Shown: positions 4,396-14,993 of the stretch, piece after piece
Position numbering within the stretch: the first letter of the stretch is position 1
Layout: every line of letters begins with the position of its first letter
Assembly: GCF_022846255.1 (NCBI RefSeq)
Contig: NZ_AP025682.1
Reading direction: 5' to 3' (one strand)
DNA length: 64,000 nucleotides
From: Escherichia coli
GTDB taxonomy: Bacteria > Pseudomonadota > Gammaproteobacteria > Enterobacterales > Enterobacteriaceae
Translations under genes and position numbers: made by a program
The notes under the pieces: generated by a model
What the model was told of the DNA's origin: nothing
Seen by the model: the letters and a program-made list of their open reading frames with translations, nothing else
Database searches by the model: none

Positions 4396-5229
4396 ATGTA
4401 TCAGGCTCAGTTTTCTCATAACCCACTGTATTGCGTAGATATTATCAAGACTTATAAACCTGATTTCACGCCACGAGTGGCCTTTATTTTAGGTTCCGGG
4501 CTGGGCGCGCTGGCCGATCAGATTGAGAACGCGGTCGCAATTTCCTACGAAAAGCTGCCTGGGTTCCCGGTAAGTACCGTACACGGTCATGCGGGTGAGC
4601 TGGTGCTGGGTTATCTCCAGGGGGTGCCAGTGGCGTGTATGAAAGGTCGCGGACATTTCTACGAAGGTCGTGGGATGACCATCATGACGGATGCAATCCG
4701 TACCTTTAAGTTGCTGGGCTGCGAGTTGCTGTTCTGCACCAATGCGGCTGGCTCACTGCGCCCTGAAGTGGGGGCCGGCAGTCTGGTCGCATTGAAAGAT
4801 CACATCAACACCATGCCGGGAACGCCGATGGTGGGTCTTAATGATGAACGTTTTGGTGAGCGCTTCTTCTCGCTGGCGAATGCCTACGATGCGGAATACC
4901 GCGCACTGTTACAAAAAGTGGCGAAAGAAGAGGGGTTCCCTCTGACGGAGGGCGTGTTCGTCTCGTATCCGGGGCCGAATTTCGAGACTGCGGCGGAAAT
5001 TCGCATGATGCAAATTATTGGTGGGGATGTTGTTGGTATGTCTGTGGTGCCTGAGGTTATTTCAGCTCGCCATTGCGAACTTAAAGTCGTTGCGGTCTCT
5101 GCGATTACCAACATGGCGGAAGGTCTGAGTGACGTGAAGCTTTCTCATGCCCAAACGCTGGCAGCAGCGGAACTCTCAAAGCAAAACTTTATTAATCTTA
5201 TTTGCGGCTTTCTGCGCAAAATTGCCTGA
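4396..5229 (+). CDS. xapA: purine nucleoside phosphorylase II (xanthosine phosphorylase)
   Basis: 277-aa ORF with PNP-family motifs; xapA-xapB-xapR order. Confidence 0.9.
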   Translation: MYQAQFSHNPLYCVDIIKTYKPDFTPRVAFILGSGLGALADQIENAVAISYEKLPGFPVSTVHGHAGELVLGYLQGVPVACMKGRGHFYEGRGMTIMTDAIRTFKLLGCELLFCTNAAGSLRPEVGAGSLVALKDHINTMPGTPMVGLNDERFGERFFSLANAYDAEYRALLQKVAKEEGFPLTEGVFVSYPGPNFETAAEIRMMQIIGGDVVGMSVVPEVISARHCELKVVAVSAITNMAEGLSDVKLSHAQTLAAAELSKQNFINLICGFLRKIA

Positions 5230-5289
5230 GTAAAACAACAATAAACGGCCTTACTGAGTGAGGCCATATGATGCGACAAGGAAACGATT

Positions 5290-6546
5290 ATGAGCATCGC
5301 TTTGCGCTTAAAGGTAATGTCCTTTTTGCAATATTTTATCTGGGGGAGCTGGCTGGTTACCCTCGGTTCTTACATGATTAATACCCTTCATTTCACCGGC
5401 GCTAATGTTGGCATGGTTTACAGTTCCAAAGGGATCGCCGCGATTATTATGCCTGGTATAATGGGGATCATCGCAGACAAATGGCTGCGTGCAGAACGTG
5501 CATACATGCTGTGTCACCTGGTGTGTGCGGGCGTACTTTTTTATGCGGCATCCGTAACTGATCCGGATATGATGTTTTGGGTGATGTTAGTCAATGCGAT
5601 GGCGTTTATGCCGACTATTGCGTTATCGAACAGCGTCTCTTATTCCTGTCTTGCCCAGGCAGGGCTTGACCCGGTGACCGCTTTCCCGCCCATTCGCGTT
5701 TTTGGTACGGTGGGGTTCATTGTCGCCATGTGGGCAGTAAGCTTGCTGCATCTGGAATTGAGTAGTCTGCAACTGTATATCGCGTCCGGTGCGTCATTGC
5801 TGCTGTCGGCTTATGCGCTGACTTTGCCGAAGATTCCGGTTGCGGAGAAAAAAGCGACTACATCGCTTGCCAGCAAGCTGGGTCTGGATGCCTTCGTGCT
5901 GTTTAAAAATCCACGCATGGCTATCTTTTTTCTCTTCGCCATGATGCTGGGTGCGGTGCTGCAAATTACCAACGTTTTTGGCAACCCGTTCCTGCATGAT
6001 TTCGCCCGTAATCCTGAGTTTGCTGATAGCTTCGTGGTGAAATATCCGTCCATTTTACTGTCAGTTTCACAGATGGCTGAAGTCGGTTTCATTCTGACGA
6101 TACCGTTCTTTTTGAAGCGTTTCGGTATTAAAACCGTCATGCTGATGAGTATGGTGGCGTGGACGCTGCGCTTTGGCTTCTTTGCCTATGGCGATCCATC
6201 ACCAACCGGGTTTATTTTGCTGTTGCTGTCGATGATTGTTTACGGTTGTGCATTCGATTTCTTCAATATTTCTGGTTCGGTCTTTGTCGAACAGGAAGTT
6301 GATTCCAGCATTCGTGCCAGCGCCCAGGGCCTTTTTATGACGATGGTAAATGGCGTCGGCGCATGGGTTGGCTCGATTCTGAGCGGTATGGCAGTGGATT
6401 ACTTCTCGGTGGATGGCGTAAAAGATTGGCATACCATTTGGCTGATGTTTGCAGGGTATGCTCTTTTCCTCGCAGTGATATTTTTCTTTGGGTTTAAATA
6501 TAACCATGACCCTGAAAAGATAACGCATCGTTCAGTTACACATTAA
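5290..6546 (+). CDS. xapB: xanthosine/nucleoside:H+ symporter (MFS, NHS family)
   Basis: 418-aa polytopic membrane ORF directly downstream of xapA. Confidence 0.88.
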   Translation: MSIALRLKVMSFLQYFIWGSWLVTLGSYMINTLHFTGANVGMVYSSKGIAAIIMPGIMGIIADKWLRAERAYMLCHLVCAGVLFYAASVTDPDMMFWVMLVNAMAFMPTIALSNSVSYSCLAQAGLDPVTAFPPIRVFGTVGFIVAMWAVSLLHLELSSLQLYIASGASLLLSAYALTLPKIPVAEKKATTSLASKLGLDAFVLFKNPRMAIFFLFAMMLGAVLQITNVFGNPFLHDFARNPEFADSFVVKYPSILLSVSQMAEVGFILTIPFFLKRFGIKTVMLMSMVAWTLRFGFFAYGDPSPTGFILLLLSMIVYGCAFDFFNISGSVFVEQEVDSSIRASAQGLFMTMVNGVGAWVGSILSGMAVDYFSVDGVKDWHTIWLMFAGYALFLAVIFFFGFKYNHDPEKITHRSVTH

Positions 6547-6598
6547 AAGGATTCGCAGCTCTGTTCCTTGGGGCTGCTTTTATGATAAAGGTTAATTA

Positions 6599-6757
6599 GT
6601 GAAAGATATTTTATTTTCTTCTGGCGTTGGTTTTGGCATTGGTGCTTTGTTTACAATCGTGCGATTACCTATTCCTGTTCCAAATGTATTGCCGGGTATA
6701 TTATCCATCGTGTTTATGTATGTCGGATATCTGGTGGTGAAATACTTTATGCCATGA
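6599..6757 (+). CDS. hypothetical small hydrophobic protein (52 aa, GTG start)
   Basis: Open frame encoding VKDILFSSGVGFGIGALFTIVRLPIPVPNVLPGILSIVFMYVGYLVVKYFMP; below the 60-aa track cutoff; no homology support. Confidence 0.2.
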   Translation: MKDILFSSGVGFGIGALFTIVRLPIPVPNVLPGILSIVFMYVGYLVVKYFMP

Positions 6758-6797
6758 TAATTTAATACGATATATTTTTTATATGGAGCACTTAATT

Positions 6798-7682
6798 ATG
6801 GAACGCGTATATAGAACAGATCTTAAGTTGCTCCGTTATTTTCTTGCCGTAGCGGAAGAGTTGCATTTTGGTCGCGCAGCAGCGCGTTTAAATATGTCTC
6901 AGCCTCCGCTCAGTATTCATATTAAAGAGCTGGAAAATCAACTCGGCACGCAGCTTTTTATTCGCCATTCGCGCAGCGTCGTACTGACACACGCGGGCAA
7001 AATCTTGATGGAAGAATCGCGTCGATTGCTGGTGAATGCAAATAATGTATTGGCTCGGGTTGAACAAATAGGTCGGGGAGAAGCAGGGCGGATTGAACTC
7101 GGGGTTGTGGGAACGGCAATGTGGGGACGGATGCGCCCGGTTATGCGGCGATTCCTTAGAGAAAATCCTAACGTTGAAGTTCTGTTTCGCGAAAAGATGC
7201 CTGCGATGCAAATGGCCTTGCTGGAACGCCGCGAACTTGATGCCGGGATCTGGCGAATGGCGACAGAACCACCGACTGGTTTTACCAGCTTACGGTTGCA
7301 TGAATCGGCGTTTCTGGTGGCGATGCCTGAAGAGCATCATCTCTCATCATTTTCCACCGTCCCGCTGGAAGCGCTACGTGACGAGTATTTCGTTACAATG
7401 CCGCCCGTGTACACTGACTGGGATTTTTTGCAGCGAGTTTGCCAGCAGGTGGGATTTTCACCGGTTGTTATTCGCGAAGTTAATGAACCGCAAACGGTAC
7501 TCGCCATGGTCAGTATGGGTATTGGTATCACATTGATAGCGGACAGCTACGCGCAGATGAACTGGCCCGGTGTCATATTCCGTCCGCTCAAAGAACGCAT
7601 CCCGGCAGACTTATATATTGTTTATGAAACGCAGCAGGTGACGCCCGCGCTGGTTAAACTGCTAGCGGCGTTGGCGCAGTAG
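6798..7682 (+). CDS. xapR: LysR-family activator of the xapAB operon
   Basis: Track ORF 6783..7682 trimmed to Met-6 to give 294 aa; LysR HTH at N-terminus. Confidence 0.85.
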   Translation: MERVYRTDLKLLRYFLAVAEELHFGRAAARLNMSQPPLSIHIKELENQLGTQLFIRHSRSVVLTHAGKILMEESRRLLVNANNVLARVEQIGRGEAGRIELGVVGTAMWGRMRPVMRRFLRENPNVEVLFREKMPAMQMALLERRELDAGIWRMATEPPTGFTSLRLHESAFLVAMPEEHHLSSFSTVPLEALRDEYFVTMPPVYTDWDFLQRVCQQVGFSPVVIREVNEPQTVLAMVSMGIGITLIADSYAQMNWPGVIFRPLKERIPADLYIVYETQQVTPALVKLLAALAQ

Positions 7683-7766
7683 ATGAGAGGCACGGGAACT
7701 GCCGGACATAGTTGGTCTGATAAGCGAAGCGCATCAGGCAATTTCGCAAATTGCAGATAGCAAAAA

Positions 7767-7789
7767 AGCGCCTTTAGGGCGCTTTTTTA
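7767..7789. terminator. bidirectional rho-independent terminator (GC hairpin agcgcctttagggcgct flanked by A- and T-tracts)
   Basis: Inverted repeat with T-run on + strand and A-run upstream; lies between xapR and the convergent tRNA operon. Confidence 0.6.
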
Positions 7790-7792
7790 CAT

Positions 7793-7868
7793 TGGTGGGT
7801 CGTGCAGGATTCGAACCTGCGACCAATTGATTAAAAGTCAACTGCTCTACCAACTGAGCTAACGACCC
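7793..7868 (-). tRNA. lysV: tRNA-Lys (UUU)
   Basis: Reverse complement reads a 76-nt tRNA with anticodon loop CTTTTAA and 3' CCA. Confidence 0.9.
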
Positions 7869-7872
7869 GAAG

Positions 7873-7948
7873 TGGTGGGTGATGACGGGATCGAACCGCC
7901 GACCCCCTCCTTGTAAGGGAGGTGCTCTCCCAGCTGAGCTAATCACCC
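7873..7948 (-). tRNA. valY: tRNA-Val (UAC)
   Basis: 76-nt tRNA on minus strand; anticodon loop CTTACAA; one of three identical copies. Confidence 0.9.
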
Positions 7949-7994
7949 ACTTCGGTACTTCACATTGTTACAAGAAATCTAGCTGGCGAGAAAG

Positions 7995-8070
7995 TGGTGG
8001 GTGATGACGGGATCGAACCGCCGACCCCCTCCTTGTAAGGGAGGTGCTCTCCCAGCTGAGCTAATCACCC
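7995..8070 (-). tRNA. valX: tRNA-Val (UAC)
   Basis: Identical 76-nt copy. Confidence 0.9.
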
Positions 8071-8114
8071 ACTTCTCAATTTCTTGCTACACGGCGGAGA
8101 CTACATAAAGTAGT

Positions 8115-8190
8115 TGGTGGGTGATGACGGGATCGAACCGCCGACCCCCTCCTTGTAAGGGAGGTGCTCTCCCAGCTGAGCTAATCACCC
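8115..8190 (-). tRNA. valU: tRNA-Val (UAC)
   Basis: Identical 76-nt copy, first gene of the minus-strand tRNA operon. Confidence 0.9.
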
Positions 8191-8207
8191 CCGCTGTGTG
8201 GAGTCGC

Positions 8208-8235
8208 ATTATAGGGAGAGTTCAAAATGAGTCAA
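8208..8235 (-). promoter_or_regulatory. sigma70 promoter of the tRNA-Val/Lys operon (-35 TTGACT, 16-bp spacer, -10 TATAAT)
   Basis: Minus strand reads TTGACT-N16-TATAAT about 18 bp upstream of the first tRNA. Confidence 0.6.
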
Positions 8236-8448
8236 CGCATTTTCTAAAGAAATTGTTCGTTCGTCGTAAATTTAAGCAAGATGATCGCAAAACAGACCGT
8301 GTTGCGCAATTTGTCAACGAAAACAATAATGCGTAAGGTTGCAACCCGAACTACATTGAGGAATCAGGCGGGAGTGATAGAATATCGCCCACTCAATTTT
8401 TCCAGGATTTGCCGGTTGTCGGCATCTTTCTAAACGTAAGGCCATTTC

Positions 8449-13524: not shown

Positions 13525-14727
13525 TTACAGCACCAGTGCTGCGATTGACGCAGACAGCACACTCACCAGGGTAGAGCCGTAAACCAGCTTCAGACCGAAG
13601 CGAGAAACCACGTTACCTTGCTCTTCATTCAGGCCTTTAACTGCACCTGCGATAATCCCGATTGAAGAGAAGTTAGCGAAGGAAACCAGGAACACAGAGA
13701 TGATGCCTTCAGCACGCGGAGAGAGCGTGGAAGCAATTTTCTGCAGATCCATCATCGCAACGAACTCGTTGGAAACCAGTTTGGTCGCCATAATACTGCC
13801 CACTTGCAGTGCTTCACTGGAAGGAACACCCATCACCCAAGCAACCGGATAGAAGATGTAGCCCAGGATGCCCTGGAAGGAGATGCTGTAGCCAAACCAG
13901 CCAGTCACGGTGGCGAACAGTGCGTTCAGCGCGGCGATCAGGGCGATAAAGCCGATCAGCATCGCGGCAACGATAATGGCAACTTTGAAACCTGCCAGAA
14001 TGTATTCACCCAACATTTCGAAGAAGCTCTGACCTTCGTGCAGGTTGGACATCTGAATATTTTCTTCACTGGCATCAACACGGTAAGGGTTGATCAGCGA
14101 CAGCACGATAAAGGTGCTGAACATGTTCAGTACCAGCGCCGCAACGACATATTTCGGCTCCAGCATGGTCATGTATGCACCAACGATGGACATCGACACG
14201 GTGGACATCGCCGTAGCTGCCATGGTGTACATACGATTGCGGGAGATTTTGCCGAGGATATCTTTATAGGCAATAAAGTTTTCAGACTGACCCAGAATCA
14301 GAGAGCTGACGGCGTTGAAGGATTCCAGTTTGCCCATACCGTTGACTTTGGAGAGCAGGAAACCAATTGCGCGGATAATCACCGGCAACACGCGAATGTG
14401 CTGGAGAATACCGATCAGCGCAGAGATAAAGACGATTGGGCACAGCACTTTCAGGAAGAAGAATGCCAGGCCTTGATCATTCATGCTACCAAAGACGAAG
14501 TTAGTCCCTTCGTTGGCAAATCCGAGCAGTTTCTCAAACATTTCGGAGAAGCCTTTCACGAAGCCCAAACCAACGTCGGAGTTCAGGAAGAACCACGCCA
14601 GTAACACTTCGATAACAAGCAGTTGAATAACATAACGGATACGAATTTTTTTGCGGTCGCTGCTTACCAGCAGTGCGAGAATCGCAACAACGGCAAGTGC
14701 CAGTACAAAATGAAGGACGCGGTCCAT
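13525..14727 (-). CDS. nupC: nucleoside:H+ symporter (CNT family)
   Basis: Track ORF 13525..14766 trimmed to Met-14 (400 aa); polytopic membrane protein. Confidence 0.88.
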
Positions 14728-14993
14728 ATTTGCTCCAAATATGAGGCAGGTTAAATTTCCGTGCACATTCTATGTAACATGGTTAAGGAAAACGAGATCT
14801 GACACACACTATAATGACGTCCTGTGACAAGCTTCAAAAATAGTGAGCTGTCATACATTTCTGCTATGTTGTGTATGGAAGCTGAAAGTTATGTAAATGT
14901 GCTAACATTAAACATAATCACAACATTCAAGTCATCAATCTTTTCGTCGTCATAATTCTGGTCTATCAAAGAAATCATCACAATCCACTTAAA

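Follow-up and report, generated by a model that had tools for sequence, protein, structure and literature searches.

Several small proteins of Escherichia coli modulate transporters, including AcrZ with AcrB, KdpF with KdpABC, MgtS with MgtA and PitA, and SgrT with PtsG. Most of these modulators consist of a single transmembrane helix and are narrowly distributed, and SgrT is not membrane-embedded. A second type of small membrane protein is represented by the dual-topology or oligomeric mini-transporters and glycine-zipper hairpins, such as SMR/EmrE, Fluc/CrcB, and the c-subunit of ATP synthase. XapX, the product of a 52-codon gene in the xanthosine (xap) locus of E. coli, exhibits similarities to both types as well as clear differences from them. 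Annotated records of its family carry only the GO term 'biological_process', the family has no assigned function, and a literature search on XapX, DUF1427, TIGR03510, PF07235, and VC2351 found no functional paper. The analysis of gene neighbours described here gives this functionally blank 'DUF' family a testable link to nucleoside uptake and catabolism across distant phyla.

The stretch of DNA analyzed (the window) comprises 64,000 nucleotides of the E. coli contig NZ_AP025682.1 (assembly GCF_022846255.1). Its plus strand carries xapA (4396..5229), the first gene of the module, which is annotated as xanthosine phosphorylase and whose orthologues match Pfam PNP_UDP_1; xapB (5290..6546), the next gene upstream of the feature under study, identified from matching E. 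coli records as the xanthosine:H+ symporter of the NHS-type MFS, with Nuc_H_symport detected on orthologues; and, next downstream, xapR (6798..7682), annotated as the LysR-type activator of xapAB, with HTH_1 and LysR_substrate detected on orthologues. The xapR start used here is that of PGAP at 6798, and an in-frame ATG lies further upstream at 6783. An earlier note on this DNA, made from the sequence alone, had described a gap of about 250 bp between xapB and xapR containing a GTG-initiated 52-codon frame at 6599-6757 that encodes a strongly hydrophobic peptide, and had considered either a real small membrane protein or a chance ORF. The gap measures 251 nt (35% GC), and the frame is correctly placed and described: xapX spans 6599..6757 on the plus strand, from a GTG start to a TGA stop 40 nt before xapR, and its 52-residue translation, MKDILFSSGVGFGIGALFTIVRLPIPVPNVLPGILSIVFMYVGYLVVKYFMP, has a GRAVY value of 1.31. 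An SD-like AAGG, recognized by sequence inspection, lies 7 nt 5' of the start (6588..6591, plus strand). Because an in-frame TAA occurs two codons 5' of the GTG and the next in-frame start is Met40, GTG 6599 is the sole workable start. In K-12, the coordinates of xapX are complement(2522518..2522676).

It should be noted that the gene is already catalogued in NCBIfam (as XapX), by PGAP, and in UniRef, and is not a discovery. The description 'unannotated' in the earlier note holds for the MG1655 reference record NC_000913.3, which has no feature between xapB (b2406) and xapR (b2405), and fails in general, since these three resources already cover the gene. PGAP-annotated genomes, including a W3110 assembly, carry the 'DUF1427 family protein' WP_000651752.1 at this position, and this CDS is annotated under the match in all 29 + 24 E. 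coli genomes that have the region and were drawn from along the similarity ranking. At least 1000 contigs encode the identical protein, which has names in both NCBI and UniRef. The name of the family points to curators having named XapX after the xap locus. For Citrobacter koseri, a 'XapX domain-containing protein' of 92 aa is given in one genomics paper. The MG1655 annotation omits a conserved 52-aa predicted membrane protein in a classic operon, and so do the resources derived from it, among them knockout collections and lists of small proteins with a 50-aa limit.

Comparison within E. coli reveals two diverged allele groups of the xap locus, a window-type allele found in 1393 genomes at ≥99% identity and a K-12-type allele, about 94% identical to the window, found in 2426 genomes. 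The junction at this locus is missing entirely from about 24% of complete E. coli genomes, an observation that we count against the best explanation offered below. Identity between the window and K-12 alleles is 92.2% for xapA, 94.7% for xapB, 96.3% for xapR, and 95.6% for the ORF, where all seven differences are synonymous third-position changes that leave the protein identical. With about 39 of its 156 sites being synonymous, the chance that seven of seven changes would be synonymous under neutrality is about 6e-5.

Comparison beyond E. coli used eight orthologous loci, namely both E. coli alleles and six other Enterobacterales loci recovered by exact-protein look-ups from Salmonella enterica, Enterobacter sp., Citrobacter enshiensis, Entomohabitans, Chimaeribacter arupi, and a metagenomic relative. 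xapX belongs to a four-gene xanthosine module, xapA-xapB-xapX-xapR, the order of which (PNP, nucleoside:H+ symporter, 52-aa ORF, and LysR regulator) is kept in all six further loci. In Chimaeribacter and the metagenomic relative, the cassette lies elsewhere in the chromosome, between metG and AraC/rha genes; the four genes thus travel together. The earlier note had suggested checking whether other Enterobacteriaceae conserve the frame, and this is borne out, the ORF being intact and free of gaps in the alignment of all eight loci, and the frameshifts or stops that it had named as contrary evidence occur in none of them. The nucleotide alignment has a three-periodic pattern of two conserved columns and one variable column, with 20, 12, and 46 variable columns at codon positions 1, 2, and 3, respectively, and the frame is the only one that is stop-free in all eight loci. 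The flanking spacers have diverged with indels, ranging from 34 to 58 nt upstream and from 39 to 119 nt downstream. Relative to the window, the dN/dS of xapX is 0.04-0.19 across genera, a range similar to those of xapA, xapB, and xapR. Orthologues start with ATG or GTG, and a purine-rich SD-like motif is located 6-9 nt upstream in all eight loci (AGGAGG in Chimaeribacter, for example).

With regard to family membership, XapX matches the NCBIfam model TIGR03510 'XapX' with 64.2 bits (E=5.8e-18; cutoff 27.8), residues 4-50 aligning to model positions 2-48 of 49, and by this sequence match TIGR03510 is its accurate family home. A Pfam scan of E. coli XapX gave no hit at E≤1. PF07235 (DUF1427) is matched at E≤1 by 28 of the 31 aligned family members. 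Relatives cover only positions ~3-45 of its 84 positions, and their scores of 24.3-27.0 bits stay below the gathering threshold of 27.1. From this coverage, XapX corresponds approximately to the first half of DUF1427, and because the gathering threshold is not reached, the PGAP label 'DUF1427 family protein' is a loose one. E. coli XapX lacks a Pfam match because the DUF1427 model is of double length and the enteric branch is divergent. Weak Pfam hits to SpoVAB, holin, and glycine-zipper models among family members were taken as compositional. A profile search of 1.84 billion representatives yielded 77 clusters at 50% identity, mostly of 50-60 aa. [quoted passage not shown]

AlphaFold2, supplied with the 31-sequence family alignment, predicts a helical hairpin composed of residues 2-20, a loop at 21-30, and a second helix at 31-50, with a mean pLDDT of 92.8, and in E. 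coli XapX the helices are joined by the proline-rich loop R22-L-P-I-P-V-P28. From the GRAVY value and the two hydrophobic helices of about 19-20 residues, the 52-residue XapX is predicted to be an integral membrane protein with the fold of a helical hairpin. Residues G11, G15, F18, P24, P26, P28, and G43 are invariant in the 31-sequence alignment, and all are present in E. coli XapX. Across 153 family sequences, the conserved features are G11-x3-G15-x2-F18 in helix 1, (K/R)22-L-P-x-P-(A/V)-P in the loop, and G33-x2-G36-x2-G39-x3-G43 in helix 2. G11, G15, and F18 are 99-100% conserved in these sequences though left free in the search pattern described below (89-100% when K/R22 is included), whereas G33, G36, G39, and G43 were fixed by that pattern, and how often they occur in the scan set cannot count as separate evidence. 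Small or glycine residues run along both helices. The K/R bias between tails and loop is approximately zero in the family sequences (mean +0.35), so the topology of XapX is weakly specified. Searches of the PDB by sequence profile and with Foldseek gave no match to XapX.

The surroundings of xapX also contain possible expression signals. Directly 3' of the xapB stop, a stem-loop of nine pairs (6555..6582, plus strand; predicted fold −13.1 kcal/mol) is followed by a TTTT(A)T run. Six of the eight orthologues have a predicted hairpin in the equivalent place, and the two E. coli alleles differ within it by pair-preserving changes alone (G·U to A-U or G-C). This terminator-like hairpin would separate xapAB from xapX as a putative terminator or transcript-end element. 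A consensus scan found no sigma-70-like site within 300 nt upstream of xapX, and in 6300-7000 it found one match, ATGCCA-16-TATATT (6749..6776, plus strand), which overlaps the 3' end of xapX. This match is weak evidence because 1.8 are expected in shuffles; in addition, its −10 element differs in the K-12 allele, the match not being conserved between alleles, and it can be taken as a weak candidate for the xapR promoter. A passage in PMC7205307, citing earlier work, describes xapR transcription as constitutive. We suppose that xapR would be transcribed from its own promoter, and that xapX would be reached by read-through of the weak post-xapB hairpin from the xanthosine-induced xapA promoter. 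Given the terminator-like hairpin after xapB and the lack of a promoter-like site upstream of xapX, expression of the latter rests on this putative read-through.

Gene neighbourhoods in the wider family were sampled with a hand-made 62-nt degenerate DNA pattern for the conserved core, run on species-representative genome contigs. The pattern, which in validation gave a single match in every one of seven known distant genes and no other hit, leaves out the enteric and haloarchaeal variants, and the scan is thus a biased sample of one part of the family. It returned at least 123 matches at at least 120 loci, all of them XapX-type ORFs by HMM and nearly all full-length (50-62 aa). Flanking ORFs were clustered without prior labels, and representatives of the clusters were annotated with Pfam. 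Clusters related to nucleosides comprised a NupC-type CNT transporter (at least 28 members, 19 of them directly upstream on the same strand), DeoC (at least 24, adjacent), pyrimidine-nucleoside phosphorylase (at least 19, at positions +1/+2), a phosphopentomutase-like member of the metalloenzyme superfamily (at least 15, at +3), PNP/DeoD (at least nine, at +1), and cytidine deaminase (at least eight, at +1), and were accompanied by TatD (at least 17, at −2) and a SorC/DeoR-type regulator (at least six, at −2/−3). Among the matches listed, the nucleoside-gene neighbour clusters lie almost all on the XapX strand. A second context is formed by ArgS (at least 30 members, at −1), DUF1934 (at least nine, at −2), an α/β-hydrolase (at least 14, at +1), and PyrG (at least six, at +1). 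Among the matches listed, a nucleoside gene (nupC, deoC, deoA/pdp, deoB, deoD, or cdd) occurs within three genes at at least 48 of 121 loci, the argS/DUF1934/α/β-hydrolase context accounts for 32 of 121, and neither class applies to 42 of 121; when the listed loci with three genes resolved on each side are considered, 19 of 33 have nucleoside contexts. Three Bacillaceae loci with a divergently transcribed MFS gene were rejected as nucleoside contexts, that gene having a weak likeness to XapB (Nuc_H_symport, 1e-14) and a better match to MFS_1_like.

Among the matches listed, nucleoside contexts occur in Vibrionaceae, Aeromonas, Bacillaceae, and Verrucomicrobiota, and the arrangements differ among these taxa. 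With X denoting XapX, Vibrionaceae and Aeromonas typically have tatD-nupC-X-deoC-deoA-deoB, Photobacterium and Salinivibrio have a second copy arranged as X-deoD, Anoxybacillus and Neobacillus have deoR-nupC-deoC-X-cdd with gaps of 15-25 nt, and Verrucomicrobiota have X-pdp (gaps of 3-12 nt) or nupC-X-pdp. Spacing to XapX is 15-24 nt for deoC, 16-25 nt for cdd, and 3-12 nt for pdp, and 47-425 nt for NupC. Sequence subgroups track context: among the matches listed, 43 of the 54 sequences in the largest subgroup (Gammaproteobacteria and Bacillota) are nucleoside-linked, as are five of six in the verrucomicrobial groups, and 22 of the 31 sequences in a paralogous Bacillaceae subgroup are argS-linked. 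The argS/DUF1934 context of this paralogous subgroup is unrelated to nucleoside catabolism and is counted against a nucleoside role. The enteric xap branch constitutes a separate, divergent subgroup.

Annotated plasmid and chromid records provide further examples. In Salinivibrio, XapX is encoded 22 nt upstream of deoD; in the haloarchaeon Halomarina, there is a 4-nt overlap between its gene and the end of a gene for nucleoside hydrolase, which itself follows ECF-transporter genes; in Natrinema, it adjoins a 5'-deoxyadenosine deaminase gene; and on a Yersinia plasmid, it lies 2 nt after an MFS transporter gene. Tandem XapX pairs occur in Tepidibacter and Oceanobacillus. Other distant members adjoin unrelated genes, for example those for a CsoR-like repressor and a SPOUT methyltransferase, and E. 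coli nupC (13525..14766 in the window) has no XapX-like neighbour. For three distant metagenomic members, the contexts were uninformative or the contigs too short.

Overall, the recurrent co-location of XapX with genes of nucleoside transport and catabolism in several sequence subgroups and phyla, among the matches listed, suggests that XapX is functionally linked to nucleoside utilisation as a small membrane component of such modules, a reading to which we assign a probability of about 60%.

This reading has to be weighed against several others, the simplest being that the ORF arose by chance in an AT-rich spacer. Its length alone is weak evidence for a gene, since a complete ORF of at least 52 codons turns up in 11% of mononucleotide shuffles of this 35%-GC sequence, and, apart from its absence from the MG1655 reference annotation, the locus is not mentioned in two E. 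coli Ribo-seq small-ORF studies, where xap was uninduced and ORFs of ≤50 aa were targeted. However, the synonymous-only change between E. coli alleles, the low dN/dS, the sole shared open frame, the 64-bit match to a curated HMM, and more than 120 homologues in other phyla speak against chance, which is effectively refuted by the allele, alignment, dN/dS, and frame comparisons. The choice that the earlier note had left between a real small membrane protein and a chance ORF thus falls to the former, on the conserved frame, the synonymous bias, the XapX HMM match, and the predicted hairpin, and we regard xapX as almost certainly a real membrane-protein gene on this comparative evidence. The position of the ORF 40 nt upstream of xapR and directly after the hairpin, together with the overlap of its 3' end by the only promoter-like match, might suggest a purely cis-acting upstream ORF: the act of translating it, and not the peptide, would determine how much xapR is expressed or would stabilise the xapAB transcript at its 3' end. 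Yet the amino-acid sequence is under strong purifying selection, XapX-family genes stand alone in hundreds of genomes, where neither xapR nor a LysR gene adjoins them, and the variable length of the xapX-xapR spacer and its unrelated sequence argue against translational coupling, making such a role very improbable. A real membrane protein with no nucleoside-specific role, for example one with a general membrane or envelope function, could also have come to its xap and deo positions by historical hitch-hiking. The loci with argS-type context or with neither class of neighbour, the distant members next to CsoR-like repressor and SPOUT methyltransferase genes, and the many nucleoside operons that lack XapX, including that of E. 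coli nupC, would be explained in this way. Against this, XapX is found in independent and differently arranged nucleoside operons in at least four bacterial lineages and a haloarchaeon, where its gene mostly shares their strand and is in many cases separated from an enzyme gene by 3-25 nt, and the xap cassette retains xapX even at another chromosomal site. Furthermore, nucleoside genes lie within three genes at 40-58% of loci among the matches listed, as compared with well under 1% of a genome, a general proportion on which the argument for enrichment rests. Hitch-hiking therefore appears clearly improbable, though less so than action in cis.

If XapX is linked to nucleoside utilisation, as we prefer, its mechanism may involve a transporter. 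The glycine faces of the hairpin would mediate packing against another XapX, against the nucleoside permease encoded alongside it (XapB in E. coli), or against both, and XapX packed in this manner would modulate nucleoside uptake or the membrane handling of catabolic products. XapX adjoins XapB in all eight enterobacterial loci and a NupC-type CNT in about 28 or more other loci, and in several nucleoside loci the three nearest genes on either side include no transporter. A permease partner is what one would ordinarily assume for a small membrane protein whose gene adjoins that of a transporter. This idea is weakened because the co-encoded transporters are structurally unrelated (NHS-MFS, CNT, ECF, and another MFS), because the tightest gene spacing involves enzymes and not NupC, and because E. 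coli nupC is without a XapX-like neighbour; our confidence in it is low. Alternatively, XapX subunits, perhaps in dual topology, could assemble through their glycine faces into a small homo-oligomer. As a pore or facilitator, this would pass a product shared by nucleoside breakdown pathways, such as a free nucleobase, or nucleosides, independently of the co-encoded permease. What the contexts share is a chemistry, the conversion of nucleoside to base and pentose, and not one transporter or enzyme family, and in some loci XapX is tightly paired with pdp or deoD while a transporter is absent from the nearest three genes; the glycine series of helix 2 and the G11-x3-G15 of helix 1, the near-zero K/R bias as in dual-topology mini-transporters, the tandem pairs in Tepidibacter and Oceanobacillus, and the twofold length of the 84-position Pfam DUF1427 model are likewise consistent with a pore. 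However, the helices contain almost no polar or charged residues to line a pathway, a near-zero charge bias is expected for any tiny, charge-poor protein, the helix 2 glycines were imposed by the search pattern, and we know of no nucleobase or nucleoside transporter with two helices per subunit. We therefore regard the pore as rather unlikely, and as more doubtful than a permease partner. A broader proposal, which is tentative and to be viewed with corresponding caution, is that XapX hairpins represent a previously unrecognised membrane component of nucleoside salvage and catabolism in bacteria and haloarchaea, being either a universal small partner of unrelated permeases or a self-assembling two-helix mini-channel for nucleosides or released nucleobases. 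If this were true, E. coli K-12 would always have carried an uncharacterised fourth gene in its textbook xap operon.

Finally, E. coli XapX can be compared with its relatives and with the small membrane proteins mentioned at the outset. It shares with more than 150 TIGR03510 relatives its size, its hairpin, the (K/R)LPxPxP loop, and the invariant glycines, whereas the enterobacterial xap branch is divergent, with Val27 in place of Ala, Ser36 and Phe39 where most members have Gly, and only 29-52% identity to non-enterobacterial family members. Its small size, glycine-lined helices, and near-zero K/R bias, and the existence of tandem duplicates in some genomes and of a double-length relative, are reminiscent of SMR/EmrE, Fluc/CrcB, and the c-subunit. 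There are also significant differences, in that SMR and Fluc proteins have four helices per subunit and XapX has two, and XapX has neither a sequence or Foldseek match to solved structures nor a conserved membrane-embedded charged residue. With modulators of the AcrZ, KdpF, MgtS, and SgrT type, XapX has in common that it is a tiny hydrophobic protein encoded or induced together with a transporter, and that it lies at the boundary of about 50 aa, where annotation and small-protein screens often miss such genes. Unlike these modulators, XapX is co-encoded with transporters from unrelated families, its partnership with them being putative, and it has two predicted helices and is spread across bacterial phyla and archaea.

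The xap locus of the window (4396-7682, + strand) exists in E. coli as two deeply diverged alleles, which show identities of 92.2% in xapA, 94.7% in xapB, and 96.3% in xapR and are separated by a dS of 0.15-0.35. Identity to the window locus is bimodal: about 1390 genomes match it at 99% or more, and about 2420, with K-12 among them, at 90-95%. In addition, at the sensitivity of blastn, the xapB-xapR junction is absent from about 24% of 5426 complete genomes. Together, the allele split and this pattern of absence look as if the locus had recombined or been imported long ago and had also been lost frequently. One concrete route of loss is seen in strain RM14721 (compared locus L140, 3804-5015), where an IS1A element has taken the place of xapA, xapB, and xapX together with a portion of yfeN and the 5' end of xapR, so that xapR survives only in truncated form.

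An entry in a genomic SELEX study assigns an RpoN (sigma-54) holoenzyme peak, at 31-59% of maximum, to the xapB-xapR spacer (PMC8743547), and inspection of this spacer (approximately 6547-6797) by eye revealed no obvious GG-N10-GC element. At its distal end, the mechanical open reading frame of xapR begins at the ATG at 6783 and encodes 299 aa (MEHLIMERV...), and both PGAP and the K-12 annotation start the gene at the ATG at 6798 (294 aa). The start at 6798 is favored because of the GGAG at 6786-6789.

Downstream of xapR, on the opposite strand, lies a cluster of one tRNA-Lys and three tRNA-Val genes (7734-8340); the repeated GRAPPLQGGGRRFDPV pseudo-ORFs are merely the tRNA repeats. An "RtT sRNA" is annotated by PGAP beside this cluster in a K-12 assembly (L001, 4392-4945). 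Further along, the CNT nucleoside transporter gene nupC (TIGR00804; 13525-14766, - strand) adjoins mntH, and no second XapX-like ORF was found elsewhere within the 64 kb, including the surroundings of nupC.

Beyond E. coli, XapX homologues also occur outside nucleoside operons. A paralogous subgroup in Bacillales and Clostridia (loci L022, L025, L081, and L099 and at least about 28 others) occupies the conserved gene order DUF1934-argS-[XapX], followed by an alpha/beta-hydrolase, pyrG, or PLD gene. Among the matches listed, several single genomes (Anaerobacillus, Aquibacillus) carry both the argS-context and the nucleoside type. In Photobacterium, Salinivibrio, and Grimontia, a protein of about 502 aa recurs after XapX-deoD (L058, L060, L082, L097, L112, L120, and L127) and is itself followed by one of about 958 aa. 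The former has no confident Pfam domain, giving only weak HTH-like matches; one Salinivibrio record names it "lactate dehydrogenase."

With respect to known families, weak SpoVAB Pfam matches were obtained for 12 of the 31 XapX-family members aligned (best E=7e-5), and weak holin and glycine-zipper matches for a few; all of these are probably compositional, arising from glycine-rich transmembrane helices. Tandem XapX-type pairs are found, among the matches listed, in Tepidibacter thalassicus (L046, 7945-8311 in reverse-complement coordinates) and Oceanobacillus salinisoli (L084, 716-1067). Furthermore, the Pfam DUF1427 model spans 84 positions, twice the length of XapX. Both the tandem pairs and the double-length model hint that the functional unit of XapX may be a pair of hairpins.
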